From contig JALGVI010000072.1 of assembly GCA_029838215.1 (NCBI GenBank), positions 1 to 19,572 of the forward strand: 19,572 nucleotides of DNA, given 5' to 3'. Both the position numbers and the translations under genes were made by a program. The notes beneath the pieces are model-generated. The model made no database searches. It had not been told where the DNA came from and saw only the letters and a list, made by a program, of their open reading frames with translations. Each line of letters begins with the position of its first letter. Position 1 is the first letter of the stretch. Source of the stretch: Candidatus Helarchaeota archaeon. GTDB lineage: Archaea > Asgardarchaeota > Lokiarchaeia > Helarchaeales > RDOG01. Positions 1 through 19,311 of this stretch are shown piece by piece.

Positions 1-2
1 AT

Positions 3-1016
3 GAAAAGAAGTGGTATTGGTTCATTCTTTCAATTGTCTTCCTGTCATTGTCCGTCTTGTCAAATGAAGCTGGCATTTTCACGATTGTTGCACTTCCACT
101 TTTTGAACTTCTTGATGTCAAGTTCATGGATTTCTTGAAGCGAAATGTTTGGAAATACATGGGATTTATTCCCATTGCCTTGATATTTTTGGGTTCTCAT
201 TTGTTTACAAGTCAGGCATATCAACATGATTGGTATCACCTGCCTGTCGTGATTCCGATTGCCATCGCTTGGGCGGCGGGATTTCTTTTGATATATTATG
301 CTATTAAGACCGAAAAATGGTTCACCAAGCCGCCTTCAATTAATTTATTCCTTATTTCTTTGGCATATTTCGCCACTTTTACGATAATACTCAAGGGAAA
401 CCCACGATCTCCCTACATGCCAACAATGACTTATGCTTTGGTTGCAGTCGCACTTCTCGTTGCGCCAAACTATTCCAGCTTGGTGACTTTTTTTAGAAAA
501 GCGGTCTTCACGAAACATTATCCAAAGAAGAAATTCTATAAACTCATTGGTATGTCGGTCCTCATCACGCTCTCCACGTCATCTCTCGTAATAAATGGCA
601 TTTATTGGTTTCAAATGGGTTACCAATCTAGTGCCGTTGCTAATCAAGTGATTCAACAAACGGAAAACCCGACAAACACTTCGATATATGTCCTAAACGT
701 ACCCTTGATCTCAAATTTTTACATGGCGGCGGGTGAGGCTGAAGTCAATCGTCTCATACACATGAAAACAGGCATTTATTATTCAGTCAACGTGATATAT
801 CTTGAAAAGGACGTTCAAATTCTCGTGCCGAATCAAATTCACCTGCTATTCATTAATGGATTTACCCTTCTTTGCGATCCGGGACGTGGTGAAATCATTG
901 CAGAGAATTACTTCAATAATAACATCACTAACAATGCAAGTTGTGTTGTTTACTTGTATGATCCGTTCACGTTTCAGTTAACAAACGTGAGTGGGTTATT
1001 ATATGCGGAATTATAA
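3..1016 (+). CDS. 5'-partial multi-pass membrane protein with a soluble C-terminal domain; possibly a GT-C-like glycosyltransferase
   Basis: The frame is open from base 3 (EKKWYWFILSIVFLSLSVLS...), so the true start lies upstream of the window. It has about 6 hydrophobic segments and a C-terminal domain with N-x-S/T sequons (NTS, NIT, NAS, NVS). The function is a guess. Confidence 0.6.
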   Translation, partial: EKKWYWFILSIVFLSLSVLSNEAGIFTIVALPLFELLDVKFMDFLKRNVWKYMGFIPIALIFLGSHLFTSQAYQHDWYHLPVVIPIAIAWAAGFLLIYYAIKTEKWFTKPPSINLFLISLAYFATFTIILKGNPRSPYMPTMTYALVAVALLVAPNYSSLVTFFRKAVFTKHYPKKKFYKLIGMSVLITLSTSSLVINGIYWFQMGYQSSAVANQVIQQTENPTNTSIYVLNVPLISNFYMAAGEAEVNRLIHMKTGIYYSVNVIYLEKDVQILVPNQIHLLFINGFTLLCDPGRGEIIAENYFNNNITNNASCVVYLYDPFTFQLTNVSGLLYAEL

Positions 1017-1068
1017 AAAAAAACGTGAAATATTGAAAGAAATCTCTTCAATATTTAATTTATTTTCT

Positions 1069-1329
1069 TCAATCTTTCTTTATCTTGATGTCGATTGAAT
1101 GTACAACTGGATTATAGATTCGAAGATCATTGCAAAAGTTCCTCGTCATCTCTAATGCTTCTGTCTCGTCTTTTGCTTCGATTGAAACCCTCAAGTATTT
1201 TCCAGTTCGGACTGACTTTACCTGTTCATATCCTCCTTTATTTAGAAGATCTCGCTGAATTGTCGTGCCTTCCGGGTCTTTTGCGGCAGGTTTATTCTCA
1301 ATAATTATTTCAACAACATGTATTGGCAT
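1069..1329 (-). CDS. purS: Phosphoribosylformylglycinamidine synthase subunit PurS
   Basis: 86 aa with KDPEG, V-x-S-V-R-T-G-K and C-x-x-L-x-x-Y-N-P-V motifs; lies directly downstream of purC. Confidence 0.93.
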   Translation of the reverse strand: MPIHVVEIIIENKPAAKDPEGTTIQRDLLNKGGYEQVKSVRTGKYLRVSIEAKDETEALEMTRNFCNDLRIYNPVVHSIDIKIKKD

Positions 1330-1389
1330 CGTAGACTTGATCCATTAATTTTAATTTCTGATTTTTTCGCATTATCATTGCAGGGGTGT

Positions 1390-2439
1390 TCATTTACTAA
1401 AATCTTTCATGAAGTCTTTATATTTCTTTACGACATTCTCTAACTTGGGACACTCAAAAAGTTCCTTGTCCATTACTGCATTTGCTGTTGACATGTAAAT
1501 ATCTTCAAAGATCTTTTTTAATTCAGCAGGTAGCTTCGATGGTTGAATCTTGCATAATTCCTTCCATTCTTTGATTTTCTGCACGGACGCTTCTTTTTTG
1601 GCATTCATTAAGTCCTCATACCAGTTGGTTTTTCTATAAAACTGCCTTGCAATTTCTTTACTGACGGAAATGCCTTCGTATGTAAACCTACACTCGTCTA
1701 ACGTGCCGAGAACATCAACGAGCATCAGTTTTCTATTGGGATCATAAGCAAGTTCTATTTTTCCGTCCTCATTGACCAGCGAAACCTTTTTTACTGCTTC
1801 CGTTATGAGAGAATTAACGCTGCGTAATGTTTTCTTGATATTATCCACTTCACTATCCGTCAATCCCGATATTTCTTGAGCCTCTTTCCATGAAACATAT
1901 CTATCGCTTTCTTCCAGCTTCGTGCTCACGTCAAAGATAGGTGAACTTAATCGCTCTCCCGGTTCTGGAAAGTGATCCAATCCCAATTCTTCTAAAGTCA
2001 GATCTCCATTCTTCAATCGCCTGAAAACGCTTGAGCCCTTAGGAAGACCATTTCTATAAATTATCTCGAGTGGAATTAAGAAATTGCTTAAATCGGGCTT
2101 GTACCGTGAATAATCATACTTTTTATTCTCAAATTTTGGCTTGATGACTCTTACTAAGCTAACTTCCATCACATTCGTAGGTTCTTCAATCTCGTCCAAT
2201 CTGGAAACTTTTCCATCCTTTGTCACCAGCCCACGATAATGCGTCCTTATGCCTTGCTTTTCAGCCTTTTCAAAAAAATAAGCACCCATTAAACAAAGGG
2301 AAGCACCCTTATTTTGGATGTGGTCGGGCATTTCACCCCAGTCAAACACGGAATACCTATTCGAAAAGACAAATCGTCCAATTCCCAGTTCTTTTTCGGT
2401 AGTTTTTTTCAACACTTGCAGATCTTTCACACTACCCAT
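1390..2439 (-). CDS. purC: SAICAR synthetase, long archaeal type
   Basis: MGSVKD..., F-x-F-S-N-R-Y-S-V-F-D-W-G-x-M-P-D, STKLEESD, EDGKIE and DVLGTLDECRF motifs. Start placed at ATG 2439, behind an SD-like GGTGG, rather than at 2478. Confidence 0.93.
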   Translation of the reverse strand: MGSVKDLQVLKKTTEKELGIGRFVFSNRYSVFDWGEMPDHIQNKGASLCLMGAYFFEKAEKQGIRTHYRGLVTKDGKVSRLDEIEEPTNVMEVSLVRVIKPKFENKKYDYSRYKPDLSNFLIPLEIIYRNGLPKGSSVFRRLKNGDLTLEELGLDHFPEPGERLSSPIFDVSTKLEESDRYVSWKEAQEISGLTDSEVDNIKKTLRSVNSLITEAVKKVSLVNEDGKIELAYDPNRKLMLVDVLGTLDECRFTYEGISVSKEIARQFYRKTNWYEDLMNAKKEASVQKIKEWKELCKIQPSKLPAELKKIFEDIYMSTANAVMDKELFECPKLENVVKKYKDFMKDFSK

Positions 2440-2598
2440 TTTTTTCCACCAACACGTTAGCTCGGGTCTTGTTTTCATGTTAAAACATGATCAATCCATG
2501 ATAGAAAGACTTAAAGCCTATTCTTTTTAGTGAAATATCTTTTTAAGATTTCTTAAAGCTCTTGTTTTTTGTCGAAACCATGATTTGCTCTAAGATGC

Positions 2599-2611
2599 TT
2601 TATATATGATT
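2599..2611 (+). promoter_or_regulatory. Candidate TATA box for the 2683 ORF (TTTATATATGATT)
   Basis: TATA-like element in the divergent purC/2683 intergenic region; the same 13-mer recurs at 10667-10679. Confidence 0.4.
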
Positions 2612-2682
2612 AGTTTCCATTTATTAATACGATATTTATAACCTAACGACTTCACTTAAAAAAGAAAAGTGAGTGGATCATT

Positions 2683-3303
2683 GTGGATCGGAACCGCATA
2701 TTAGCCCAACTATTAACAGGAGGCATTGTTGCTGGAGTCGCAGTTTCTATTTTTGGTGCGTTTTGGTTTCTTCTAGACGTGATTTCCTTCATTTTGAATC
2801 CCGTCGTAGATATTCTAACGTTTTACTGGTTTCTCACATTACCCTTTACGAATACAGGGTTGTTTATCTTCATCATTGGAATGGGATTTATGGTCTTTTT
2901 TTTCCTGATCATTGCATTCATGGTTATCTATAAACGGGGCTACGGTGCAATATATGAAGCTCTTAATAAACAACCCATACAGTGGACAGAATCCGAACTA
3001 ATAGAGACAAAGAAAGAACGACGAATTGCAAACTTCATCTCGTGGGGTCTCATAATTTCCCTGGTCATAATTCTATTTGGAATGTTATTTTCACCCATTT
3101 CCAGTTTATCTGGGAGTGGAGGGTCGTGGCCCGTCACATTGTTGATAATCATTCTCAGCATTGCCACGAGGTTTCTTGGATTAGATATACTACTTTTAGG
3201 TCTTACAATTCTTCTTGGCTTTCTAATCTTGACTGCACTCGCACTATTAATAAAATACGGTCATAGGTTTTTCTTGAAACTATTTTTCAAGATCAACAAG
3301 TAA
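2683..3303 (+). CDS. Hypothetical membrane protein (about 5-6 TM helices)
   Basis: 206-aa ORF with a GTG start, long hydrophobic segments and one charged loop; followed by T-tracts. Confidence 0.75.
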   Translation: MDRNRILAQLLTGGIVAGVAVSIFGAFWFLLDVISFILNPVVDILTFYWFLTLPFTNTGLFIFIIGMGFMVFFFLIIAFMVIYKRGYGAIYEALNKQPIQWTESELIETKKERRIANFISWGLIISLVIILFGMLFSPISSLSGSGGSWPVTLLIIILSIATRFLGLDILLLGLTILLGFLILTALALLIKYGHRFFLKLFFKINK

Positions 3304-3323
3304 TCAAAAATTTCCAGAAGTTT

Positions 3324-3400
3324 CTCCTTTTTTTTATTTGAATTAAAGAAAAGCTCCTTTTATTCAATTCATTTTACTGAACTCAGAGATCTCCTTTTTT
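3324..3400 (+). terminator. Tandem oligo-T tracts (CTCCTTTT x3), candidate archaeal terminator
   Basis: CTCCTTTT occurs at 3324, 3354 and 3391, just after the stop codon at 3303. Confidence 0.4.
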
Positions 3401-3482
3401 GATTTTTTAGCAAAAATAACGTTTTTAAACCATTCAGCCCAATATATAATTTATTCACAATCTTTGAAAAATGACGTAGAGA

Positions 3483-4346
3483 GTGAAGTCCTTGGTTTAT
3501 AAACCCCCGAGTGTCAAACCCCCGAGTTTATGCCCTCGTTGTGGCGGTCCTTTGGTAAGTATAACGGATGACGAAGGCAATGTTAAGGGAAAAAGATGTC
3601 CTGCTTGTGGATTTGTGACTAGTAAAGGAGCTGCTGCCAGACCTGAAACTATTAAAATTAGGATGGATGAGCCAAAAAAGTCTAAAGAAGAAAGAATCTC
3701 CATTTTCAAGATGGTTCAAGACGATGTGGCTCCTACGACTGAATTGAGTTCTGATAATGTATGCCTCATCTTAGATCGAGACCAAAATAAAATCTTCATC
3801 TGGAAAGGGAAATATACGTCTCCAGGGGAACGATATCGTGCAGGTACTGCGGCGACTCGTTTAAAGAGCAGGGAACGATTATACGGTGCCGCTACGGTGA
3901 TCGTAGATGAAGGTGAAGAACCTGCTGATTTTCCCGATCTCTCAAAATTGAAGTCGCAAGTTGCTGTTGAAGATCAAAAACGGAAAAAAGAAGAAGACAA
4001 AATGAAAGAAGAAGCAAGGAAAAAAGAAGAAGAAGAAGAAGCAAAAAAGAAAGCTGAAGAAGAGGCAAAACGAAAAGCGGCTGAAGAAGCCAAAGAAAAA
4101 GCTGAGGCTGAAGCAAAACCATCTGCATCGGCTGAACCTACTGCGGCAGAAGACATGCGCATCAAATCATTGACCATCATCGACGGAATTGACGAAAACG
4201 TCGCAAGAAAACTCATCGAAATCAACATCACCTCCGTCGCACTACTAGCTACAGCTGACCCCTCAATGATATCTGAGAAAACGGGGATCGATGCTGACAA
4301 GATTCGCCAAATAAATCAGAATGCAAAGTCCATTTTAGGATTATGA
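3483..4346 (+). CDS. Zn-ribbon + gelsolin-like domain + E/K-rich helix + C-terminal helix-hairpin-helix protein
   Basis: CPRC...CPAC at aa 17-42; gelsolin-type ELSSDNVCLILD...IFIWKGK..SPGERYRA...VDEGEEPADF at aa ~72-152; E/K/A-rich run at aa 163-212; LTIIDGIDENVARKL..INITSVALLATAD...SEKTGI (HhH_5/RadA-N-like) at aa ~229-286. Confidence 0.85.
   Translation: MKSLVYKPPSVKPPSLCPRCGGPLVSITDDEGNVKGKRCPACGFVTSKGAAARPETIKIRMDEPKKSKEERISIFKMVQDDVAPTTELSSDNVCLILDRDQNKIFIWKGKYTSPGERYRAGTAATRLKSRERLYGAATVIVDEGEEPADFPDLSKLKSQVAVEDQKRKKEEDKMKEEARKKEEEEEAKKKAEEEAKRKAAEEAKEKAEAEAKPSASAEPTAAEDMRIKSLTIIDGIDENVARKLIEINITSVALLATADPSMISEKTGIDADKIRQINQNAKSILGL
3501..3527 (+). repeat. Exact 12-nt direct repeat AAACCCCCGAGT (15-nt period) encoding KPPS-V-KPPS
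   Basis: Identical copies at 3501-3512 and 3516-3527. Confidence 0.9.
3969..4118 (+). repeat. Low-complexity GAA/AAA/GCT region encoding an E/K/A-rich (single-alpha-helix-like) linker
   Basis: Translates as EDQKRKKEEDKMKEEARKKEEEEEAKKKAEEEAKRKAAEEAKEKAEAEAK. Confidence 0.8.
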
Positions 4347-4400
4347 ACACGTGTTTTTTACATTTCTTTTTTTATTTTTGAATGCATGTTGATGTGTCTC

Positions 4401-5693
4401 TCACGGGTATGTCCTATTAATCGTTCTTGGATATGCTATCGTATCTCTGATATTTTCCAATTCAAGTATCCAACGAATCACGCGTTCAACGCCAAGTCCC
4501 ATTCCCGCATGAGGCACGCTCCCATATCGCCGCAAGTCCACGTACCATTCATAATCTGCTGGATTTAGATTTTCGGCTTTAATTCTGTCCAATAGGATGT
4601 CCAAATCATGAATTCTCTGACCTCCTCCAATGATTTCACCATACCCCTTTGGTGCCAGTAAGTCCACGCAATCTACGATCTTTGGGTCTTCCGGATTTGG
4701 AGAATGGTAAAATGCCTTGGCTTCCTTGGGATAACTATGGACGAAAATGGGGAGGTCTTCGTCCTGAGTTAAAACGCGCTCTTCCTCCGTACCAAGATCG
4801 GTTCCCCACTCGAATTCTATTCCTTTCTTCGATAGGACCTCAACTGCTTCTGTATAGGATATTCTTTTAAACGGAGGCTGAACCTTGAGCAAGTCGTCCG
4901 CTTTAATGTTAAAAACTTCCAATTCCTTCGCGTGCGTTTTCGCAATCACTTCACAACAATATGATACTAATTCCTCTTCAACACGCATTAATTCCTGAAG
5001 TCCCATGTATGCCGCTTCGCACTCCAACATCCAGAATTCTGTTAGATGACGCGTGGTTCGGGATTTTTCGGCTCGAAAACTGGGTGCCACGGTCCAAACT
5101 TTCTCCAAGGAAAAGATCAAGGTCTCCAAGTAAAATTGACTTGACTGGGTTAGATATGCCTGTCCATCAAAATATTTCAAATTAAATAACGTGGCTCCTC
5201 CCTCGACGGCAGATCCCGTGAACATGGGTCCGTGAACTTGAATCCAACCTCTATTATTGAACCAATCCGTGAATGCTCTGAACAACGTGGCCCGTATCTT
5301 CATGACGTGTGAGAGTTTTTGCGATCTCAACCATAAATGACGCTTATTTAACAAGAAAGAAACGCTTTGATCTTTGGTAATTGGAAATGTTTCGGCAGGG
5401 TGAATGATGTTCAGACTTTGAACCTGAAGTTCATGACCACCCGGACTTCTCTCATCTTTTCTGACGATTCCGGTCACCTCAATTGCCGATTCAATCGTGA
5501 TTTTCTTGGCTACCGCAAATGCTTCGGGTGCTTCTTCTCGCACCACGGTCAATTGAATGATGCCCGTTGAATCCCTCAAGATAATAAATCGCATTTTTTT
5601 CGTTCCCCGAGCGCGATACACCCATCCGCGCAGGTTGGTCTGCTGCCCTACAAGATTGCCTTGCAAAACATCCTGAACGTGAATGAAATTCAT
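4401..5693 (-). CDS. asnS: Asparagine--tRNA ligase
   Basis: OB-fold N-terminus (LRGWV...ILRDSTG); QSSQFYLE, FRAEKSRTTRHLTEFWMLECE, GYGEIIGG and WYVDLRRYGSVPHAGMGLGVER motifs, all AsnRS-type. Confidence 0.93.
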   Translation of the reverse strand: MNFIHVQDVLQGNLVGQQTNLRGWVYRARGTKKMRFIILRDSTGIIQLTVVREEAPEAFAVAKKITIESAIEVTGIVRKDERSPGGHELQVQSLNIIHPAETFPITKDQSVSFLLNKRHLWLRSQKLSHVMKIRATLFRAFTDWFNNRGWIQVHGPMFTGSAVEGGATLFNLKYFDGQAYLTQSSQFYLETLIFSLEKVWTVAPSFRAEKSRTTRHLTEFWMLECEAAYMGLQELMRVEEELVSYCCEVIAKTHAKELEVFNIKADDLLKVQPPFKRISYTEAVEVLSKKGIEFEWGTDLGTEEERVLTQDEDLPIFVHSYPKEAKAFYHSPNPEDPKIVDCVDLLAPKGYGEIIGGGQRIHDLDILLDRIKAENLNPADYEWYVDLRRYGSVPHAGMGLGVERVIRWILELENIRDTIAYPRTINRTYP

Positions 5694-5761
5694 GGTTCTT
5701 CTTCCTTTTTAAAAATTTTTCGTTGTCTTATTTTAGATATAGCACCTAATTTGAAAAAAGT

Positions 5762-5784
5762 TTAAATTTAAAATTTAAATTTAA
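5762..5784. promoter_or_regulatory. Perfect AT-only inverted repeat TTAAATTTAAA-A-TTTAAATTTAA between divergent genes
   Basis: 11-bp arms at 5762-5772 and 5774-5784 with a 1-nt spacer, in the asnS/flavoprotein divergent region. Confidence 0.45.
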
Positions 5785-5890
5785 TGTTCCAGACCTAATC
5801 TACCATGATTCTAAAAAATCAATGATTTTCAAATGATTTATAAAGTATTTTGACTAATGATGGTCAAATTACAAATGAAGGTGTAATGTT

Positions 5891-7024
5891 TTGACAATTT
5901 TAACTCGGTTAACAAAAGATTTAGGCATGAAGGTACCCATCTTTCTTGCAGGAATGGGACCCTTCTCCACTTATAAGACAGCGGTTTTAGTGTCGAACAA
6001 CGGCGGTTGCGGGCTTACTAGTCATTGGGGTATTCTCTCAAAGGTTAATCCCAAAACTCACTTGATTGACCACGAAGAAGGCGTCTACATTAGTCCCCAA
6101 CAAAAAATGGAATTCGATCTTGATTACATTGATAAAAACCTTGAAGACGATAAAGTCATCGGTTGTAACATACGCGTGGCGCGAATCCAAGTCGATGCAC
6201 CTGCCGTTATCAGAACGGTCTTGAAGAAACGCAAGGAAAATCGAAAGATTAGAGAAGCCTTGAAAGTCATCGTGACCTCTGCAGGAAATCCAATGATTGC
6301 TCAGAAATTATTAAAGAAAGAAAAATATTTTGTCGATGGTAAAAAGGACATTTTACATTTCCACGTGAGCCCCACGTTAGCATTGTGCCAGAATACCTTT
6401 AAAGCGGGATGCGATGGTGTAATTGCCGTGGGATTTGAAGGCGGTGGACATCAATCTTACGAAGGCGTGAATACGAGCGTTCTCATTCCTGAAGTTCGTG
6501 AATGGATTGACAAAGAATGTCCAGAATTCTACCTCGTGGCTGGTGGCGGGTTCTATAATGGACGCACGCTTGCTTCAGCATTGGCACTTGGTGCAGAAGC
6601 CATTCAAATGGGAACACGTTTTATTGCGACTTCCGATGGCGATTTTCACATCAACTTCAAAAATGCCATAGTCAAGGCACGCGATGAAGACACGATGGTT
6701 TGTTCGGGAGCATTTGGTCCGATTCGACTGTTGAAAAACGAATATGCTCTGGCACATGCAAAAGTCTTAAGCAAAGCAGAAAAAATGGCTCAAGAAAAAG
6801 GTACCGGTGGCGTGGGAGTCGATCCAACACAATTGAACAAGCAATTGGCTGAAGACATGAAACGATATGATCTCGTTTATGAAGGTGATGTTGAACACGG
6901 CGCCGTGCTCTGCGGTGAAACCGTTGGTGGCATCAACTCGCTCAAGACTGTAAAGGAAGTCATAGAAGACATCATCGTCGAAGCCACGCAAGTCATGAAA
7001 ACAATGCCCAATATGATTGAGTAA
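5891..7024 (+). CDS. Nitronate monooxygenase / FabK-like FMN-dependent oxidoreductase
   Basis: PIFLAGMG, AVGFEGGGH, AGGGFYNGRTLASALALGAEAIQMGTRF and CGETVGGI motifs; TTG start behind GAAGGTG. Confidence 0.88.
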   Translation: MTILTRLTKDLGMKVPIFLAGMGPFSTYKTAVLVSNNGGCGLTSHWGILSKVNPKTHLIDHEEGVYISPQQKMEFDLDYIDKNLEDDKVIGCNIRVARIQVDAPAVIRTVLKKRKENRKIREALKVIVTSAGNPMIAQKLLKKEKYFVDGKKDILHFHVSPTLALCQNTFKAGCDGVIAVGFEGGGHQSYEGVNTSVLIPEVREWIDKECPEFYLVAGGGFYNGRTLASALALGAEAIQMGTRFIATSDGDFHINFKNAIVKARDEDTMVCSGAFGPIRLLKNEYALAHAKVLSKAEKMAQEKGTGGVGVDPTQLNKQLAEDMKRYDLVYEGDVEHGAVLCGETVGGINSLKTVKEVIEDIIVEATQVMKTMPNMIE

Positions 7025-7174
7025 GTCTTTGGCTTATTTTCAACTTTTTTCATTTTTTATCTCGGCTAGAAGCATTGATGCTAATCGTAAATTTTACTCT
7101 GAATGAAATTCTTCACGATCTCCCATTCATTCAAATATTTAAAGTCAGGATAAAAATCATGAGATGTTTTTATC

Positions 7175-7393
7175 ATGCGTCTTGAAGTCCGCATCATTCC
7201 AAATGCCCGGGAAACTCGTCTTGAGGTCATTGCTGATGATTGCATTAAGGTCTGGCTGAAGAATCCACCGGTAAAAGGAAAAGCTAACAAGGAATTAATC
7301 AAGTTTTTACGTTCCCATTTTAAGGCAAGTAAAGTGGAAATCATTTCGGGCCATTCGGGTAGGAAAAAAATAGTGATTATTGAAACGGACTAA
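7175..7393 (+). CDS. DUF167 / UPF0235 (YggU-like) protein
   Basis: V-R-I-I-P-N-A, PPVKGKANKELIKFL and V-E-I-I-S-G-x-S-G-R-K-K motifs. Confidence 0.92.
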   Translation: MRLEVRIIPNARETRLEVIADDCIKVWLKNPPVKGKANKELIKFLRSHFKASKVEIISGHSGRKKIVIIETD

Positions 7394-7420
7394 AGTCTTC
7401 ATGTTTAGAGAATCAGTGAA

Positions 7421-8284
7421 TTAAAAAATTTGAGACAGGTCAAATTCTTCTCCTAACTTGCCCTCATGAGAAACCGCAGTAACTCTAGTCAATCCTGGCA
7501 CGTGTTGGATTCCTTCGATTCCTTTTTTGATGGCATCGAATAATTTCACGACATCAAGGGAATCAATTATGATTTGGTATGCAATTTCATTCTCGTTAAT
7601 TGTAGACGATTCGATCCCGGGACAGAACGCCTGATTTATCGTTCCTTTATCTTTCATGAAGTCGTACTGAACCGAACCGATTTTTACACCAAATTTTGAA
7701 AGTCCTCCTGGATATGGACAAATGACTCCCGGTGTTTCTTGAATTATTTCTGCAAACATCATTCCTGCTTTTAGCATCGTTGTAGGGTCTCCACTCAACA
7801 CGATACTCGTGCTAACACCCCGTTTCAAGCCAAATTCGGAATCTAGGATGAATCCGTTTGGATCATCAAAGGATGGTAAAAGCCAGACTTGTCGGTCCTG
7901 AAATCGAGCCTTTTTTTGAAGTCCATCTCCGAACAGTGCAATGGAATCTCCAATTTTTACGTTTTCCACTTCAGGATCGGGTTCCATTGCATTCAGGCAG
8001 CATGCCGTTGGCGTTGGCAAGATACTTTGTGTCATTCGTCGTGCCATTTCCTTTTCCAATACGGCTTTTGTTGGTGCTGCGATCATCAGAATCACGCCCG
8101 GACGCCCGTCAGGACCATCCAACACCCGCAAGTCTATGCCGCCTTCTACGCCCTTTTTGTACCCAAATCCACTTGCGGCACGAGCTGCCGTAAGTGCCCA
8201 CTCAGGTGATACTGCCGTGATGAGAATCCGCCCTAACCATAGCGGAAATAACTCGCCCTTGCCTCTAATTTCTATGTTTTCCAA
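7421..8284 (-). CDS. Divergent formylmethanofuran:H4MPT formyltransferase paralog, probably catalytically altered
   Basis: Aligns along its full length to the adjacent Ftr (RILITA, PDGRPG, FGDG, PGG, FCP) but has YQIIID in place of LEIVLD and lacks the EAF, GGGNF, SGSK and GNYGG motifs. TTG start behind GAGGGT. Confidence 0.85.
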   Translation of the reverse strand: MENIEIRGKGELFPLWLGRILITAVSPEWALTAARAASGFGYKKGVEGGIDLRVLDGPDGRPGVILMIAAPTKAVLEKEMARRMTQSILPTPTACCLNAMEPDPEVENVKIGDSIALFGDGLQKKARFQDRQVWLLPSFDDPNGFILDSEFGLKRGVSTSIVLSGDPTTMLKAGMMFAEIIQETPGVICPYPGGLSKFGVKIGSVQYDFMKDKGTINQAFCPGIESSTINENEIAYQIIIDSLDVVKLFDAIKKGIEGIQHVPGLTRVTAVSHEGKLGEEFDLSQIF

Positions 8285-8310
8285 GTTGGACCCTCAAATA
8301 AAAAAATAGG

Positions 8311-9255
8311 TTATAAACCTAGGATTTCTTTTAAATAGATGTTATGCTTGCCGAGAGTGCCTCCGTAATTTCCTGCAGATATCTTTTTGATACCAGGGAC
8401 GGCTACTGCAGCCTTGATTCCATCTGCCATTGCCTGTTTGACCGCATCCAAAGTTATTCCATCAAGGACAATTTCGAGCACGCAATTCACGTCTGCTGGA
8501 ACTTTGGTTCCTTCGACTTGATCTTTTAGCGTCGGACATTCAAAATGGTTCGTTGAAGCATTCAAGAACTTGTATTTCATGCTTCCCGTCTTAGATCCTG
8601 ACCGGCAGACACCGCCGGGAAAGCTGGTGATCACGCCTTCAACTTTTCCTATTGCTTCGATGGCGTCCATTGATGCTTTTAATGTGTTATCCAAATTGTC
8701 TCCAAAAATGAAGAAGTTACCTCCACCAATGGCTTTTTTTGCCTTGAAACCATCTTCGAATATTGCTTCACCTTCCATCACGGGAATCTTCCAGATTGTT
8801 CGGTCCCCGAGTTGGTCCTTTTTCTGAAATCCATCTCCAAAATAAGATAATTGAAATCCCGTTCGGAATACGGCTGGAACTTTCTCTTCGGTTCCATCTT
8901 TCTTTTTCTTTTTATATAGGTCTGGTTCCGCCTTGAGCCAGTCAAAAACCGACACGGTTGGACAGGTCAAAAGACATTGCCCCATGCGATTTAAAAGCGT
9001 ATTTCCCAACTGTTTCCTGGGTGCAAAAAGCATTGCCGTAGCTCCCGGTCGTCCATCGGGAGTTTCAGTCTTTGGAATGACCAGATCTACTCCTGCTTCA
9101 CAATCGCATGCAATCGTGGAAACTGCAAATCCCGTGAAGGTTGAAATTGCGTTCTTTACCCACGTTTCATCGTGAGCGGTGATCAACACGCGTGCGCACC
9201 ACATGTTAAATGCTTCCGCATACGTGTCGTCTATCTTAACACCATTTAATTCCAA
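8311..9255 (-). CDS. ftr: Formylmethanofuran:tetrahydromethanopterin formyltransferase (canonical)
   Basis: DTYAEAF, TPDGRPG, FGDGFQ, IGGGNF, RSGSK, STNH, LEIVLDG and SAGNYGG motifs all present; TTG start behind GGTGG. Confidence 0.95.
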   Translation of the reverse strand: MELNGVKIDDTYAEAFNMWCARVLITAHDETWVKNAISTFTGFAVSTIACDCEAGVDLVIPKTETPDGRPGATAMLFAPRKQLGNTLLNRMGQCLLTCPTVSVFDWLKAEPDLYKKKKKDGTEEKVPAVFRTGFQLSYFGDGFQKKDQLGDRTIWKIPVMEGEAIFEDGFKAKKAIGGGNFFIFGDNLDNTLKASMDAIEAIGKVEGVITSFPGGVCRSGSKTGSMKYKFLNASTNHFECPTLKDQVEGTKVPADVNCVLEIVLDGITLDAVKQAMADGIKAAVAVPGIKKISAGNYGGTLGKHNIYLKEILGL

Positions 9256-9321
9256 TCAAAACCACCTTTTTTGTATTCAAGTGCAAAATTCTTTTAGTTA
9301 TCAATTAATAATTTGAGTCTG

Positions 9322-9329
9322 ATATAAAA
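9322..9329 (-). promoter_or_regulatory. Candidate TATA box for the ftr operon (TTTTATAT)
   Basis: Lies about 67 nt upstream of the ftr start in the divergent intergenic region. Confidence 0.4.
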
Positions 9330-9499
9330 GTTTAAGCACGATGATTTCCCTTGCTAAAGGCATTCAAATTCAAGTTTATCGCATCTAAAGGAAATATGAT
9401 GAAAAATAAGAAACCATCACGTGAAATTTCTTCTGAATTTCAAAGGATTTTCATACTCCAGTAGCCTGTCCAGATTGCCTCCTAGCTTAATTGACTTAC

Positions 9500-9513
9500 C
9501 GAAAATATAAATA
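9500..9513 (+). promoter_or_regulatory. Candidate BRE + TATA box (CGAAAA-TATAAATA) for fwdG/fwdF
   Basis: Purine-rich BRE-like element immediately followed by a consensus TATA box. Confidence 0.55.
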
Positions 9514-9611
9514 TACAATTTTCATATTTTGTGTGATTACAAGCCTTGAATTATCAAATTTAAATTTATCAAACTAAAATTTTGTACTTACGATGCAGAT
9601 TTCATGACGTG

Positions 9612-9872
9612 ATGAGAATGGAAACGGAACGTACTTACCTTCCCGTTGTGAATAAAGTCAGATGCACTGGCTGTGGTGATTGTACCATCGCCTGTCCCGT
9701 TGATGTTGATCTAAAGAAGCAAAATGAACCCACCATTCTAATAGTGACTAACGGGCTTTGTATCGTTCAGACTCCCGAAGCTTGCGATGGCTGTGGTAAC
9801 TGTGTCTCTGCTTGCAGCCAAGATGCAATTCACATAGAACTGGTAGGAGGCACGGCAGAAATCAAGCTATAG
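9612..9872 (+). CDS. 2x[4Fe-4S] ferredoxin, FwdG-like
   Basis: CTGCGDCTIACP and CDGCGNCVSAC separated by an ILIVTNG segment typical of FwdG. Start taken as ATG 9612 (or 9618) rather than TTG 9582. Confidence 0.85.
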   Translation: MRMETERTYLPVVNKVRCTGCGDCTIACPVDVDLKKQNEPTILIVTNGLCIVQTPEACDGCGNCVSACSQDAIHIELVGGTAEIKL

Positions 9873-9885
9873 GAGGTTATCATGC

Positions 9886-10578
9886 ATGATCCCGAGCTTT
9901 AAACATACAATCGAGAAAGATAATCAAGAATTGAGCATGCGGCTCCTTACATTGAAAACCAAGTTGATTCATCACCAAGAAAAGTGCATGGGCTGCAATA
10001 CATGCCGAATTGTATGTCCAAAGGATGCTGTTTCACGCGGACCTGTTGGGGCTGTGATGAAAAATCTCACGGAGAAAGTCCCTTCTGTTGTCTTTGACGT
10101 GAATAAATGTAGTTTCTGTGGTACCTGTGTATATCTATGTCCTTTTGGTGCACTAGAACTCCTAATCGATGACCAACAAGTCTTAAAACTAAAGGAAGAA
10201 AAGGCACTTCCCGATCTAGTAATCGAAATGAAGAAAACAACTGATGGAGCGCCAATAAAGTGCTTCTTTGAAGGAAAAATCACGATTAATGCCGACGTTT
10301 GCATCCCCGAATGTCAAAGTTGTGCCATCGGATGCCCTACTGGAGCAATTGAATATCCAAAAGCTGAAAAGCCGTGGGAAAAAGCCACGCGCGTTACTGT
10401 GGATGAAGAAAAATGCGTGAAATGTGGTACCTGCGTGCATATCTGTCCTTCAGAAGCCATTACGTTGGAACGTACAGAAATCAAGTTCAAAGGAGAACCT
10501 GAAAAAGATTATACTGTTCCATTCTGGCCCAATATCGTGGAAAAACTGAAGACTAAGCTACAGAGTCCAATAAAATAA
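9886..10578 (+). CDS. Polyferredoxin with four [4Fe-4S] motifs, short FwdF-like
   Basis: CMGCNTCRIVCP, CSFCGTCVYLCP, CIPECQSCAIGCP and CVKCGTCVHICP; FwdF-like RGPVGA and GEITI-type segments; strong SD (AGGAGGT) at 9871-9877. Confidence 0.85.
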   Translation: MIPSFKHTIEKDNQELSMRLLTLKTKLIHHQEKCMGCNTCRIVCPKDAVSRGPVGAVMKNLTEKVPSVVFDVNKCSFCGTCVYLCPFGALELLIDDQQVLKLKEEKALPDLVIEMKKTTDGAPIKCFFEGKITINADVCIPECQSCAIGCPTGAIEYPKAEKPWEKATRVTVDEEKCVKCGTCVHICPSEAITLERTEIKFKGEPEKDYTVPFWPNIVEKLKTKLQSPIK

Positions 10579-10758
10579 TCTCGCAATTTTTAATTCTGCC
10601 CCTTTTCTTACTTTTATCATTTTTAATTATTTTTTCGCAAATAATAGTTTCTTCCCAATTGATGATTTTATATATGATTTCTCGAAACGATCATTAATGT
10701 TTATTGAAAAAGTATATTCGGGAGCAAAATAATGTCTTTGACTCGAACAGCATCTCGT

Positions 10759-10836
10759 GATCGGACCTGCTTTCCCTACTTTTTCTCGCTCCCTCCTCCC
10801 ATCTTATCGGTTTCCTCCTCTTAAGTAGGTCCGATC
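10759..10836 (+). other. Intergenic stem-loop: 14-bp stem and a ~50-nt pyrimidine-rich loop; candidate ncRNA
   Basis: GATCGGACCTGCTT (10759-10772) pairs with AAGTAGGTCCGATC (10823-10836) with one G-U pair; the loop contains CCTCCTC twice. Confidence 0.45.
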
Positions 10837-10853
10837 CCCTAACTATCTTCATG

Positions 10854-11450
10854 TCAACTTGCTTCTTTTTCACGACGACAACGAAGGTAATGCAGTAAAT
10901 GAAGACCCAAAAACAAGCCGTAACCAATTAAAAGATAAAGCGAGAAGAAATCAAAAAGTAATAACAAGATCAGGCTGATGAAAAATATCGCCACTTCCAC
11001 GACCAAAATGATTTTTGAATGATAATACGTCATGGTGAAATAACACTGAGGAACGCGTCGTGGTGGGTCTGAAGGTGGTGATGGCGGCTTTAGGGTCCCA
11101 CCGATCAATAAATCCCTTTTTATTGGAGTTAAAGCACAGGTCCCCCAGTCGATCAAATCCAAACTGACATGAACGAGTCCTGCAAGTCCGGCATAGAGCA
11201 ACCATGGAAAATTAAAGAATGCAAGCAAGACTCCGAACCCCATTAATATCAGGTATAATGGAAAGCCGTGAGTAGGAAGCCGTCGATGATTGTAGTCCTT
11301 CGCAAACCGAGAAAATATGAAATCAAAATCAATGAGAATGGAAATGCCAACAATCAAGAGCAAGTCTAAATGAGAAAGATGCTGGAAAAAAAAAGTGCGG
11401 AGAAATATTGTTAAAATAATACCCGCCGATAAGTGGACGTTTATTTGCAA
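10854..11450 (-). CDS. Membrane-bound metal-dependent hydrolase (YdjM/DUF457-like)
   Basis: H-L-S-A-G, I-D-F-D, H-R-R-L-P-T-H-G and H-V-S-L-D-L-I-D metal-ligand pattern within hydrophobic helices. Confidence 0.8.
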   Translation of the reverse strand: MQINVHLSAGIILTIFLRTFFFQHLSHLDLLLIVGISILIDFDFIFSRFAKDYNHRRLPTHGFPLYLILMGFGVLLAFFNFPWLLYAGLAGLVHVSLDLIDWGTCALTPIKRDLLIGGTLKPPSPPSDPPRRVPQCYFTMTYYHSKIILVVEVAIFFISLILLLLFDFFSLYLLIGYGLFLGLHLLHYLRCRREKEAS

Positions 11451-11502
11451 GGTTGTTCATCCTCTTCATGCCACGTCAAATAAAAATTATCTGGAATCGT
11501 TC

Positions 11503-12690
11503 TTAGTGAAAACGTTCTCGCTCGACTCGCATGTAACATTCTGCAACCGATTCTTCAGGGATTTCATTTCGGACTTTCACGAGGTCGATTTTATTTGCGG
11601 GACAATTCGAAGCACAAACTCCACAACCAATGCATCGGTCTTCGTCGACTCTCCATTCTTCTTCATATTCTTCATGCGGCATGTAATGCCAGATTGCCTT
11701 GGTCGGACAAATCTCGACACAGCGATAACAATTTCTACACTCATTTTCGTTGAATTTAGCCATGTAATTGCTTCTCATGAAAGCTTTCGGATTTTGCATC
11801 TCAACCATGCCACGCAAGATTCCACAATGACAAGGACAGCAATTGCAAATGAAACCCATTTCTTGAGAATTATACGTGCAGTGAACAAGTCCTTTTTTCT
11901 CGCAGTCCAATAGGACTTCTAGAGCTTCTTCTTTTGTGAGTTCTTTGACTATCATTCCTGCTCTTTTAAAATGTTCGATATCTCCTAAGAGCATGCATAC
12001 ATCCACAGGATTATCGCACGGACCCCGCCCTGGTTTATCATTGTATCGGCTTTCCGTCCTGCAAGCACAGGGAATGACTGCAATTCCGTCTGCCCTTTCT
12101 ATTGCTGTCTTTACTTGTTCGAAAGGCAACACGACGGTTTCGTCGACCCCTAATTCTTCGTTAACCTCTACAATCTTGTTTGCCCGATCTGCTGGTAAAA
12201 TTCTCGCCCACGGGTAATTGCTGGCACACATTTCCATGAGAAACCCCTCATAGGCATATTTTTCCATGAGCTTAACAACTTTCTTTACTGTTTCATCAGA
12301 ATATGTTCCATCATTCATTCCGACTTTTGAAAAGAACCATTCAAAAACTCCAATGACCATTGGCCAAATTGAGTATTTCACCAGTTCCTTTCCTGTTGCA
12401 GTCGTTTTCCTTCTGGAATATATCATTCCTCTCTTGGCGAGATTTTCAACGATTTCGAGTATTTTTTCTTCAGAATATTTATCGGTTTTTGCTTGAATCC
12501 TTTGTACCAGCTTTCTGGGAGAAAGGGCATCAAGATGTGGTTGTTTAAAAAAGCCTAAAATTTCTGCTTCTTCTGGAGTGAAAATTAGTTGCAGGATTTT
12601 GAGCAGGTTTTTGGATTTTGGAGTGCGAATCGACCAGCGATTCATTATTTTTTGTAACCGCTCATAAACTTCAAGTTCTTTACCTGACAT
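11503..12690 (-). CDS. Uncharacterised 4Fe-4S protein with an N-terminal wHTH-like region and extra Cys clusters
   Basis: IFTPEEAEIL...LAKRGMI, CACR...C...CM, ICNCCPCHC, CRNCYRCVEICP and CIGCGVCASNCP motifs. Confidence 0.85.
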   Translation of the reverse strand: MSGKELEVYERLQKIMNRWSIRTPKSKNLLKILQLIFTPEEAEILGFFKQPHLDALSPRKLVQRIQAKTDKYSEEKILEIVENLAKRGMIYSRRKTTATGKELVKYSIWPMVIGVFEWFFSKVGMNDGTYSDETVKKVVKLMEKYAYEGFLMEMCASNYPWARILPADRANKIVEVNEELGVDETVVLPFEQVKTAIERADGIAVIPCACRTESRYNDKPGRGPCDNPVDVCMLLGDIEHFKRAGMIVKELTKEEALEVLLDCEKKGLVHCTYNSQEMGFICNCCPCHCGILRGMVEMQNPKAFMRSNYMAKFNENECRNCYRCVEICPTKAIWHYMPHEEYEEEWRVDEDRCIGCGVCASNCPANKIDLVKVRNEIPEESVAECYMRVERERFH

Positions 12691-12721
12691 TTTTATACAT
12701 CTCTATTTTTAATTTTTGAAT

Positions 12722-13150
12722 TTACATGTTAAATAATTTCATTATTTTCGGATAATTCTTTGATACCCAATTCTGGAGCTTCTTAAGGCTGGTGGCATTT
12801 CGCAGATTGGCAAAGAGAATTAATGAGCGCGACATGATTTTCGTATAGAGCAAGTTCTCCTCAACCGTCACCGTGAACTCCAAAATTTCTCTATTTGCCA
12901 CATCGAGATAGATCTTTGAAGATGAAGACACTAAATCCGGTAAGTCCGCTGCTAGCGAACGCTCGTTGATACCCTCATCCGTAGATGAAATAATCGGCAA
13001 GCCCTTATATGAAGCACTTGTTCCCACTATCAAAATGGCACTTGCATTTATCGAATTCCTTAATTTATCAAATTCCATCTCAAGTTCTTTTGCATTTTCC
13101 AAAGAACTATCTTTACTCAGAATTTTTTTTATAAAATCACTGATTCCCAT
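12722..13150 (-). CDS. Roadblock/LC7- or longin-like small protein
   Basis: Helix, then AILIV...GLPIISS...LAA, then alternating strands and a C-terminal helix, matching the Roadblock/profilin-like pattern. Confidence 0.55.
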   Translation of the reverse strand: MGISDFIKKILSKDSSLENAKELEMEFDKLRNSINASAILIVGTSASYKGLPIISSTDEGINERSLAADLPDLVSSSSKIYLDVANREILEFTVTVEENLLYTKIMSRSLILFANLRNATSLKKLQNWVSKNYPKIMKLFNM

Positions 13151-13213
13151 GGATAATCAACAAGATTCGTTTTGTTACAAATTAAATGGTAAACCAGTTT
13201 TTAAATCCGATTA

Positions 13214-14308
13214 TCAACCGATAAGAAGAAATATGGTATAAAGACCTGCAACGGAAAATATGGCTATCAACAAGATGTCTATTGTAAGAACGGAGAAGAA
13301 ATATAGTCCCTTACGGGATTTCAACAGTTTCCTGCCCTTCTCATAGATTTTTCCGAAGAAATCATGCTTATTACGAAGCTCCATGAAATAATAGAAATAA
13401 ATCAAGAATAATGGAAGCAAATATGTTCCGTGCTCAATGCGAAAAGTAAGAAATGAAAAATTAAATCGATTTGCACTTGCTGCAAACTGGGTGAGTCGAT
13501 TTAGGAAAAGAACGATCAAAGAATTACTGAGATATGCCGGATTGAGCAAAATCATTACAATATCAATTATGAACATGCAATTCAAAAGCAAGACCATCCC
13601 ACAAAATACCGTAAAATAGAGCCACTTTTTTTTAGCACGAAGAATAAAAACAGGAAGCGCAATGATCATGTGCAATTTAAACATGGATAATGCCAAAAAA
13701 ATGGCACTCGGGAGGTCTTTTTCCTCTAAACTGAACTTATACGCCAACATCAGCAAGAGAAGTACAACAAAATTGAGATTTAAAAGAAATAGCTCCACGT
13801 AAATTGAAATTAATCCGAGGTAAAAAATGGGAAATGTTTTATCAAAATTCTTCTCCATTAACTTGTTTGCATAGAACAAGCAAGCAACAGTCATGCAAAA
13901 ATATGCCACTACTCCAATAAAAGGGAAAAATGGGTTTGGAACGATTTGATACAACCAAAATGGCAAATAGAAGGGCAAGATGTAAAGGATCATGTATGGA
14001 AGGTAAGGCCAACCATAAAGGACTGCTGATGCTCCTGCCGGAGTAAAATAATAGAGAAGATGAAACCCACCCGTGACGAATAGGTTTGCTGAACTTATAT
14101 ATATGATGAAATCGGTCCAGATGGGAAAAATTGAAATGCTGAATTGGTTCGTTGCGAATAAATATGAATTTCTAACCAGACCAATTATCAATATTACGAG
14201 AGCAATGCTTGAATATACCAACATTCTATACTTAAAATTAAACTTCTCGACTGGAATCGCGTGCAGTCGCGCAGTAAGACTCTCTTCTTCCATCTTTTTG
14301 TGTCCCAC
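13214..14308 (-). CDS. Multi-pass membrane protein, GT87/DUF2029-like glycosyltransferase
   Basis: About 9-10 TM helices; Y-L-P...F-Y-L-P, N-L-N-F-V-V-L-L-L and S-A-I-F-L-A-L-S-M-F-K pattern resembling GT87. Confidence 0.55.
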   Translation of the reverse strand: MGHKKMEEESLTARLHAIPVEKFNFKYRMLVYSSIALVILIIGLVRNSYLFATNQFSISIFPIWTDFIIYISSANLFVTGGFHLLYYFTPAGASAVLYGWPYLPYMILYILPFYLPFWLYQIVPNPFFPFIGVVAYFCMTVACLFYANKLMEKNFDKTFPIFYLGLISIYVELFLLNLNFVVLLLLMLAYKFSLEEKDLPSAIFLALSMFKLHMIIALPVFILRAKKKWLYFTVFCGMVLLLNCMFIIDIVMILLNPAYLSNSLIVLFLNRLTQFAASANRFNFSFLTFRIEHGTYLLPLFLIYFYYFMELRNKHDFFGKIYEKGRKLLKSRKGLYFFSVLTIDILLIAIFSVAGLYTIFLLIG

Positions 14309-14332
14309 TAAACTAATTCTAATCCTTGTTAA

Positions 14333-14734
14333 TTAGCCACGTACTGATTTCTTCGGTTCTGGTTGCTTCTTTTTTCTTTTATATCGATGGGTCTTGTAAT
14401 TGTATTTTCCTCGAATTCTTTCAATCTCGCCATACGTATCCGTCAATTTTTGCAGGTATTTTTTCAGGTATTTATTTTTCAATGGATGGGGATTGTTGAG
14501 CCGTTCCAACACTTCATCTGATGATGGCTTTGAATTCAAGAGCTCTAATCGACTTAACGGAATTTGCACGGAAGATAATACCCACCCTTTTTCTTTTGTT
14601 TGAGCTCTTATCTGACCAACTCCTGCCTTCTCATCGATAGTCAATTTAGTCTGCCCTAGTTTCTGGGCTTTCTCATCTCGCACCTTAATTGAAACTATTT
14701 TCTCTTTCTTCTTCTTTCCATCGTTGGAGCCCAT
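14333..14734 (-). CDS. Hypothetical lysine-rich protein
   Basis: 133-aa ORF that exactly fills the gap in the minus-strand run; SD-like GAAGGG; no recognised motif. Confidence 0.7.
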   Translation of the reverse strand: MGSNDGKKKKEKIVSIKVRDEKAQKLGQTKLTIDEKAGVGQIRAQTKEKGWVLSSVQIPLSRLELLNSKPSSDEVLERLNNPHPLKNKYLKKYLQKLTDTYGEIERIRGKYNYKTHRYKRKKKQPEPKKSVRG

Positions 14735-14769
14735 GTTATCCCTTCAATTTATTTTTGATTCACTTTCTG

Positions 14770-15708: not shown

Positions 15709-15798
15709 GATCTCCTCAATACATGCATGTAAATGACTTGTAAAATCGAATCTTAAAATGATCTGTCTTTTGGTTTGTCAATAAAATTAAAAAATGGA

Positions 15799-15942
15799 TT
15801 ATTTTTCTTGGAATTGGAGAAAAATATCATTCAAAAGCATTAATAAGCTCAAGAACTCAACGAGAGACGTATCAATGTCTTGATCATCCTCGTCCCAAGC
15901 CAAACAAAAGAGTGGAGAATACCTATCGTAAAATAATGTCAT
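15799..15942 (-). CDS. Candidate 47-aa acidic small protein
   Basis: Translated by hand: MTLFYDRYSPLFCLAWDEDDQDIDTSLVEFLSLLMLLNDIFLQFQEK*, preceded by GTGAAGGA; fills an otherwise empty 350-nt gap. Confidence 0.4.
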   Translation of the reverse strand: MTLFYDRYSPLFCLAWDEDDQDIDTSLVEFLSLLMLLNDIFLQFQEK

Positions 15943-16060
15943 GATTCCTTCACGAGTTTTCCTTTTAAGAATGATCCCCTTAACTCCTTAATAAAGAAAA
16001 TTCTTTTTTGTCTTTTAGGTTTCTATCTATTTTTTTTGATATTTCTCTAGGTCCAAAAAC

Positions 16061-16981: not shown

Positions 16982-17010
16982 GAGAAATTCCTGCAACAAA
17001 TTGTTTTTTT

Positions 17011-19183: not shown

Positions 19184-19311
19184 CTTGATTTGTTTTATTG
19201 CATCGACAAAAGAGTAATTAGAATAAATTCTTTAATATTCTTATCTTTGATTTGGAATTTATAGATGTCCTAATCTTCCGATCTGAATGAACACGTCGAG
19301 GATTTAAGTTA

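Follow-up and report, generated by a model that had tools for sequence, protein, structure and literature searches.

A Helarchaeota protein with a zinc ribbon, one gelsolin domain, a charged helix and a helix-hairpin-helix tail: a candidate actin-binding head with an exchangeable dock

What would a protein that joins a gelsolin domain to a helix-hairpin-helix (HhH) domain hold together? The question is raised by a gene at 3492-4346 on the forward strand of contig JALGVI010000072.1 of a Candidatus Helarchaeota archaeon (assembly GCA_029838215.1; positions 1 to 19,572, the 19,572 nucleotides that were analysed and that we call the window). The gene encodes, in this order, a zinc ribbon, one gelsolin-like domain, a helix rich in Glu and Lys, and a C-terminal HhH domain. 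An earlier reading of the window made without database searches (the sequence-only reading) proposed that this protein ties actin to DNA, anchoring the nucleoid or ribosomes to the Asgard actin cytoskeleton, while cautioning that HhH tags might not be DNA binders. To our knowledge almost nothing is known about what this cytoskeleton attaches to. It is dynamic and drives shape change and crawling (PMC13716822).

Our analysis makes it somewhat probable that the protein combines a head for binding actin, a spacer whose length can evolve and a docking tail that can be exchanged. The head, an inherited cassette of ribbon and gelsolin domain, would bind the organism's own actin through the long helix of the gelsolin domain, as solved for ProGel and 2DGel. 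The spacer, as a single stable alpha-helix, would keep the two ends about 8 nm apart, and through the conserved acidic (HhH)2 domain the head, once on actin, would be joined to another partner in the cell, which is more probably a protein than DNA.

The ribbon-gelsolin head and its helical spacer

All four modules and their order, as given by the sequence-only reading, were recovered far above chance by Pfam, by profile matches to the PDB, by AlphaFold2 (AF2) and by Foldseek. The full-length AF2 model was built on a 19-sequence alignment and had a mean predicted local distance difference test (pLDDT) score of 82. Residues are numbered throughout on the 284-residue form of the protein.

The gelsolin domain (3690-3941, residues 67-150) has a W-x-G motif, a long helix at residues 111-127 and an EGEEPxxFP end. 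Pfam PF00626 matched it at 24.4 bits (cut-off 21) and at 26.6 bits in a six-frame search of the genome, and the protein held just one such stretch. Searching the PDB with phmmer returned villin (E 1.8e-9) and Lokiarchaeota 2DGel (7whg, E 8.8e-8), and also gelsolin, adseverin and CapG. AF2 predicted the gelsolin domain at residues 69-140 with a pLDDT of about 90. When the model was compared with the PDB using Foldseek the top match was Thorarchaeota ProGel bound to rabbit actin (7c2f, chain B; TM-score 0.76, root-mean-square deviation (rmsd) 2.2 Å, probability 1.00), followed by domains of Thor 2DGel, gelsolin, villin and adseverin, all with a probability of 1.00. The same comparison found the gelsolin fold at residues 72-152, where the sequence-only reading had placed it. 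Trp104 and Gly106 were invariant across homologues.

The domain was 43% identical (E 2e-25) to widespread Asgard single-gelsolin proteins of the P0038 type (P and L numbers denote proteins and loci), in which the gelsolin domain is followed by an acidic linker and the C-terminal helix is conserved. Another single-gelsolin head with a different partner was seen in P0068, an Asgard protein of 243 residues in which gelsolin is joined to a Roadblock/LC7 domain (22.5 bits in Pfam against a cut-off of 23).

The genome from which the window comes (G000; 3.6 Mb, 94% complete) encodes an actin (440 bits against Pfam Actin; contig C49, 28764-29873, minus strand) plus an Arp-like gene, and it also has another single-gelsolin protein and weaker gelsolin matches. 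A search for sequencing runs returned none. In L. ossiferum, five gelsolin homologues co-immunoprecipitate with Lokiactin (PMC13716822). The kinship of the domain suggests that the head, ribbon and gelsolin domain together, likely binds actin. This binding is probably not controlled by Ca2+, because the Asp of the type-II Ca2+ site is not conserved in the family: at the position aligned to Thor 2DGel D2 the window protein has Asn, and N, H, T, E, K, R, S, G and F were found across the family. The Glu of the site, with which the long helix begins, is kept by the window protein and by most of the family.

A gelsolin fold can also serve a partner other than actin, as the gelsolin-like domain of Sec23/24 does, and the protein might then have no cytoskeletal role. 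The modest Pfam (24 bits) and PDB (1e-9) scores would fit this, as would a locus with no actin, profilin or Arp gene adjacent to it. In a manual alignment that was not verified by a tool, a Thr here falls at about the position of Ile103, which we take to be the key hydrophobic residue of the gelsolin G1 helix. However, the residue that Thor 2DGel D1 has there is likewise small (by eye), yet complexes of 2DGel with rabbit actin have been solved (7c2g, 7c2h). All of the best sequence and fold matches were actin-binding gelsolin domains, the top one solved on actin; the genome has its own actin; and in a paralogue two more canonical gelsolin domains (over 100 bits) follow the shared cassette. We therefore give very little credence to a protein that serves no actin.

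The module ahead of the gelsolin domain (3525-3626, residues 12-45; CPRC ... CPAC) is basic, with an isoelectric point (pI) of 9.1. Its four cysteines (C14, C17, C36 and C39) were invariant in 19 homologues, and AF2 predicted a three-stranded ribbon (strands 22-25, 31-35 and 42-44) with pLDDT 82-86. The family profile matched the RpoM-2 ribbon (7oqy_Y) at E 6e-6 and the S27ae ribbon at E 7e-4 in the PDB, and several weak zinc-ribbon Pfam matches fell on residues 14-46. Together these data point to a C4 zinc ribbon of the RpoM/TFIIS-C/S27ae type, with putative metal binding. It is followed by a basic, mostly disordered linker (3627-3689, residues 46-66; pLDDT below 50 at residues 47-59) with a conserved I/L-K-I/F motif in which K55 is nearly invariant. 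Ribbon and linker together carry a net charge of +6 (pI 9.1-9.5).

The E/K/A-rich segment that leaves the gelsolin domain (3942-4109, residues 151-206) is, from its composition and model, most likely an ER/K single alpha-helix and not a coiled coil. AF2 predicted a single uninterrupted helix of 56 residues, of which 68% are D/E/K/R and 18% Ala, with large hydrophobic residues (LIVFMWY) at 4 of the 56 positions. Opposite charges spaced i,i+4 form 25 pairs (12 E-to-K and 13 K-to-E). The sequence-only reading had called this a stiff EK spacer of about 7 nm; composition and the single-helix prediction agree with such a spacer, its stiffness is presumed from them, and its length would be about 8 nm if it is helical throughout. 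At the DNA level positions 3969-4118 form a degenerate 21/24-bp tandem repeat (Tandem Repeats Finder). Because repeat DNA encodes it, the spacer would change its length easily, and among orthologues it runs from about 25 residues (P0028) to about 200 residues (P0018).

A short flexible hinge rich in Pro, Ser and Ala (4110-4142, residues 207-217; pLDDT below 50 at residues 207-214) separates the helix from the tail. In the sister-family proteins P0020, P0024, P0026, P0029 and L031 the hinge holds a conserved motif of about (S/E)-h-W-x-x-V-A-D-A-T-K-P before the HhH domain, and it survives in the window protein as the remnant AEAKP. This motif may be a linear binding motif.

Distribution of the cassette and its architectures

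A domain-architecture survey showed that the ribbon-gelsolin cassette is restricted to one order and occurs in four architectures. In six-frame translations of 400 genomes of the phylum, the full ribbon and gelsolin match (spanning profile positions from about 1-13 to 141-153) was confined to the window's order, where it was found in six of the seven species genomes (G000 and G123-G128). Only the gelsolin part was recovered from the seventh, G125, on a 3.6-kb contig, and matches outside the order were limited to the gelsolin part. An exhaustive search with the head profile gave 379 matches, and the architectures were read from the best of these and from the six-frame loci. A word-index search found relatives named Helarchaeota and one each named Lokiarchaeota and Hodarchaeota, all of them similar to the window protein in the N-terminal half alone, at 40-62% identity. 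Four loci, two of them named Helarchaeota, came from a pattern scan of genome contigs. The word-index search with the tail alone returned nothing beyond the protein itself, and the tail family was recovered through the full-length head-profile matches.

Architecture A, to which the window protein belongs, is the cassette followed by a charged spacer and a terminal element. In architecture B the cassette continues into two further canonical gelsolin domains (Zn-Gel-Gel-Gel), and this is the Helarchaeota 2DGel with a divergent N-terminal gelsolin domain of Akıl et al. 2022 (PMC9433394). Architecture C consists of short-tailed cassette forms. In architecture D the cassette comes last, at the C-terminus, behind a conserved N-terminal motif and an extended, true coiled coil. 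Type-D members (P0033-P0069, and L063, L064 and L065 from G128:C2, G123:C48 and G124:C193) begin with the motif MSIEWDKI... and have a coiled coil of 150-280 residues; no type-D copy was found in the genome of the window. That genome does have a type-B paralogue on contig C99 (26870-27625, minus strand), with the cassette and then two canonical gelsolin domains. The ribbon of this paralogue is missing from the assembly because the gene is cut at the contig end.

Type-A genes were present once per genome in the six genomes from which they were recovered, and all had the charged spacer. What varied was the end of the protein: HhH in the window's genome, G123 and G124, ...EVW in G126 and G127, and a PEVK-like PE repeat in G128. 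The EVW proteins, L061 (G127:C11) and L062 (G126:C120), come from a third family of the order and end in ...EEVW or ...LEVW after a spacer of EK or EVK repeats. A close relative of the window protein, P0004, ends in a Lys-rich tail in place of HhH. The HhH-tailed form itself made up eight clusters at 50% identity, the window protein's own and seven further ones.

In a tree of the cassette, type D formed a separate clade with 100/100 support. The HhH-tailed proteins fell in two places: the window protein grouped with the EK/Lys-tailed P0003 and P0004, and the EVW pair was sister to the other HhH clade. Because the HhH-tailed proteins are split in this way, tails have been replaced or lost on more than one occasion. 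Within the clade of the window protein's family, the cassettes of three-gelsolin and one-gelsolin paralogues grouped by lineage and not by architecture (100/99), a pattern that suggests either that paralogues have undergone gene conversion or that the three-domain form arose repeatedly.

The C-terminal domain and its likely partner

The protein ends in an acidic five-helix (HhH)2 domain of the RadA/Rad51 N-terminal type (4143-4343, residues 218-284), identified by Pfam, model and profile. Pfam HHH_5 scored 26.9 bits on the protein (cut-off 27) and 29.7 bits in the six-frame genome search. Modelled alone the tail reached a pLDDT of 93.7, and in the full-length model residues 218-282 reached about 95. 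It superposed on the N-terminal domain (NTD) of SsoRadA at 1.1-1.4 Å over 57-58 residues with 31-32% identity, and also on NusA AR1/AR2 and the RAD51 NTD. A profile made from seven orthologous tails matched SsoRadA (E 6e-8) and NusA (E ~1e-3) in the PDB. The RecA-type ATPase core is not attached to this domain; the (HhH)2 fold ends the protein and neither Pfam nor AF2 gave an ATPase domain. The seven tails share 15 invariant positions at 31-37% identity, a degree of conservation that suggests the tail is under selection.

The NTD of SsoRadA binds double-stranded DNA (dsDNA), for which K27 and K60, conserved in all RadA/Rad51 NTDs, are needed, and the positive charge of K60 affects binding strongly (PMC1964548). 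The seven gelsolin tails were aligned with the NTDs of RadA, of which the window's genome has three paralogues. The counterpart of K60 was Lys in all three paralogues and Q, Q, E, E, N, E and D in the seven tails. The counterpart of K27 was again Lys in all three paralogues, and was Lys in three of the seven tails. In the window protein Lys stands at the K27 position and Gln, directly preceded by Arg, at the K60 position. Both hairpins of its tail read G-I-D where the canonical HhH hairpin is G-h-G, but this is weak evidence because SsoRadA departs as well, with G-I-S and G-I-P at these places. The tail has a net charge of -2 and a pI of 4.85, and two orthologous tails have net charges of 0 and -4. 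The RadA NTDs of the same genome, judged by eye, seem near neutral too, so that an acidic charge is by itself no bar to DNA binding; net charge was therefore dropped as a decisive test and replaced by the lysine comparison.

The relatives of the tail were then considered. The next-best matches of the tail profile in the order were the last repeat of a fusion to ribosomal protein eL13, small two-HhH proteins and an HhH-flanked membrane protein, with RadA lower. Other HHH_5 domains in the window's genome lie in Hef, UvrC, Hel308, a MutS-like protein and RadA, all ordinary DNA enzymes. Comparison of these sequences would place the tail in a tag-like HhH subgroup in which the testable mark of RadA-style dsDNA binding is missing.

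Some of these HhH proteins have layouts of their own. The eL13 fusion (G000 contig C85, 6995-8341, plus strand; L077:355-1695) consists of L13e (25.1 bits, cut-off 24.9) and four or five copies of HHH_5. Nothing else in that genome comes as close to the gelsolin tail as the last of these copies (34 bits). G125, G126 and G127, which belong to the same order, carry the fusion too. A 486-residue protein (L074:1486-2943, from G124:C119) combines two HhH domains with a multi-pass membrane segment and, at its C-terminus, a DUF4332/HhH pair. One RadA paralogue (G000 contig C122, 4102-5295, minus strand) carries an 80-residue N-terminal extension, rich in E/K and in K, before its HhH.

With these data the tether of the sequence-only reading can be weighed. 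If the tail bound DNA, RNA or ribosomes non-specifically, the nucleoid or ribosomes would be held to actin filaments, and the helix would determine how far from them. In favour, the tail has the fold of the RadA/Rad51 NTD, a dsDNA binder (PMC1964548); the K27 counterpart is kept, and K57 and R59 lie near the K60 position; P0004 has a very Lys-rich tail of a polyanion-binding type in place of HhH; and the nearest HhH relatives include repeats fused to eL13. On the other side, the K60 counterpart is non-basic in 7/7 tails and kept in the three RadA paralogues, the K27 counterpart is found in 3/7, the domain is acidic, the G-I-D hairpins weakly argue the same way, the EVW and PE-repeat ends of other lineages do not resemble DNA binders, and the gene neighbourhood is not DNA-related (no DNA-related genes were found in it). 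An actin-to-DNA link is unlikely because the tail is without the lysine that RadA needs for DNA, and the same loss lowers the probability that the tail binds nucleic acid in general. We consider a tether of actin to nucleic acid unlikely as a whole, and decidedly unlikely that the tail binds either DNA or, as its eL13 kinship might hint, rRNA and so links actin to nucleoid or ribosomes. The claim of a DNA-binding tail thus was not borne out, and the lysines, the charge and a nearest relative other than RadA speak instead for the reservation made in that same reading about DNA binding by HhH tags. If the tether did exist, it would foreshadow, in a prokaryote, the use of actin to position genomes or the translation machinery, and the lineage-specific tails (HhH, EVW, PEVK and Lys-rich) would make one head a general adaptor for different cargoes.

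We instead judge the tail to be more probably of a protein-binding type, because it is acidic, has lost the K60 counterpart and resembles NusA AR1/AR2. NusA AR1 and AR2 are known as binders of proteins (lambda N and the C-terminal domain of the RNA polymerase alpha subunit) and not of nucleic acid.

A protein partner could be a second copy of the tail. The protein would then be an actin cross-linker, a two-headed dumb-bell whose paired (HhH)2 tails set a bundle spacing of twice the helix length. (HhH)2 domains do dimerise in XPF/ERCC1 and in archaeal Hef/XPF, and a spacer that varies between conserved ends would suit a ruler. Thor 1DGelX bundles filaments besides severing them (PMC7444086). 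Lineages with EVW or PE-repeat tails would nevertheless need some other means of pairing. Moreover, we know of no homodimerisation by the RadA NTD or NusA AR, the closest relatives in fold. Cross-linking through paired tails accordingly seems to us an unlikely function.

The partner could also lie within the same polypeptide, with the acidic tail folding back to mask the basic ribbon-linker head and the E/K helix setting the effective concentration. Engineered ER/K linkers do set effective concentration, and NusA AR2 masks the RNA-binding domains of NusA itself. The tail resembles the NusA AR domains, and its charge (-2) is opposite to that of ribbon and linker (+6). However, AF2 gave no confident contact between domains (predicted TM-score (pTM) 0.38), the charge of the tail is not conserved among the orthologues, and the roughly eight-fold variation in spacer length would greatly alter the effective concentration. 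Self-regulation of this kind is very improbable.

The gene itself is real and belongs to an Asgard archaeon of the Helarchaeota type. The open reading frame at 3483-4346 on the plus strand, as first called from a GTG start (287 residues), agrees exactly with the list of open reading frames. An in-frame TTG at 3492 is preferred as start and gives 284 residues with the stop codon at 4344-4346; the public gene call P0002 begins MVYKPPS, and the N-termini of 19 aligned homologues (consensus MVxR...KKLCPRCG) also favour the TTG. A TATA-like A/T-rich box, ATATATAA (3442-3449, plus strand), lies 34-43 nt 5' of both candidate starts and is, from its sequence, a possible archaeal promoter. The gene is solitary, with 180 nt of A/T-rich spacer on its 5' side and a convergent gene on its 3' side. 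The purine-rich GAA/AAG repeat that codes for the EK stretch accounts for the antisense open reading frames within 3497-4300, which were set aside as its by-products.

In the sister family, the loci of P0020 and P0024 share a gene order of a GNAT acetyltransferase, the Zn-Gel-EK-HhH gene, a longin-like protein of 158 residues and a Ras-family GTPase with a long N-terminal extension. The locus of P0026 keeps the first three genes and then has an unrelated protein of 345 residues. These loci were read on L021:5302-8831, L022:287-2702 and, for P0024, a Logan contig. The adjacency of longin and Ras genes was not taken as functional evidence because both are present in dozens of copies.

Several points weigh against an actin-binding head with a docking tail for proteins. 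The case for actin binding is one of homology, and the type-II Ca2+ Asp and several helix positions differ from gelsolin G1. The pTM of the full-length model leaves the placement of the domains relative to each other undefined. The tail of the window protein retains the K27 counterpart and has an Arg adjoining the K60 position, and the near-neutral RadA NTDs limit what its acidity can tell. The sister-family gene order is not kept in the window, the best homologues in the same genome being on other contigs, and the neighbours of the gene, an uncharacterised membrane protein upstream and a convergent class II aminoacyl-tRNA synthetase downstream, give no functional hint.

An actin-binding head with a docking tail would offer a simple and testable design: a conserved head, a spacer that evolves by repeat slippage and a tail that is replaced by lineage. 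If the tails dock, finding their partners would chart for the first time which structures actin is linked to in an Asgard lineage with no cultured member. The cassette may likewise illustrate the acquisition of a second contact by a lone gelsolin domain, which has been proposed as the step that led from ProGel to proteins that sever. Even under the plainest reading, the gelsolin superfamily gains a defined subfamily restricted to one order and a combination of domains not described before.

Comparison with known systems

A literature search found no description that combines gelsolin, helix-hairpin-helix and Asgard. The class with a single gelsolin domain and an extension, and the design of a charged linker with a small end domain, are already published. 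Apparently undescribed are the N-terminal ribbon-gelsolin cassette, its four architectures, its restriction to one order and an HhH domain on gelsolin.

The spacer is like the ER/K helices of myosin VI, myosin X and caldesmon in being rich in E, K, R and A, with dense i,i+4 pairs and almost no hydrophobic residues. Unlike these it is archaeal and is encoded by a degenerate DNA repeat. The tail shares with the RadA/Rad51 NTD (SsoRadA, PDB 2BKE and 2Z43; PMC1964548) the five-helix fold and the K27 counterpart; unlike the SsoRadA NTD it is acidic and sits at the C-terminus of a protein that is not a recombinase, and its K60 counterpart is never basic in gelsolin tails. NusA AR1/AR2 (PDB 1U9L, 1WCL and 1WCN) are, like the tail, acidic C-terminal (HhH)2 domains (TM-score 0.68-0.81), but they are bacterial, arranged in tandem and without a long charged helix, and their sequence similarity to the tail is weaker than that of RadA.

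For the head, the best structural match was Thorarchaeota ProGel (7C2F chain B), aligned over 84 columns at 21% identity. ProGel, unlike the window protein, is a bare domain, and it binds rabbit actin weakly (Kd 337 µM; PMC7444086). Loki and Heimdall 2DGels are regulators of actin whose charged linkers bear small terminal domains. Loki2DGel (MKD1-2DGel; Akıl et al. 2022, PMC9433394; PDB 7WHG) has, like the window protein, a gelsolin core, a charged linker that is helical or a PE repeat, and a small terminal domain, and it is the 2DGel found above by sequence. It differs in having two gelsolin domains and in being Ca2+-regulated. Its zinc domain is C-terminal and found in Lokiarchaeota only, whereas the window protein has an N-terminal ribbon of the RpoM/S27ae type and a C-terminal HhH.

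The closest layout is that of Thorarchaeota 1DGelX (Akıl et al. 2020, PNAS, PMC7444086), in which one gelsolin domain is followed by a long extension that is predicted to be helical. 1DGelX binds rabbit actin with a Kd of 7.7 µM and nucleates, severs and bundles without Ca2+ (PMC7444086). Its independence of Ca2+ has a parallel in our family, where the type-II Ca2+ Asp is not conserved. Unlike the window protein, 1DGelX is described with no mention of a zinc ribbon or HhH, and its domain X is a predicted coiled coil (PMC7444086). With exactly one gelsolin domain and a non-gelsolin extension, the window protein belongs to the 1DGelX class, a class assigned by layout and not by orthology.

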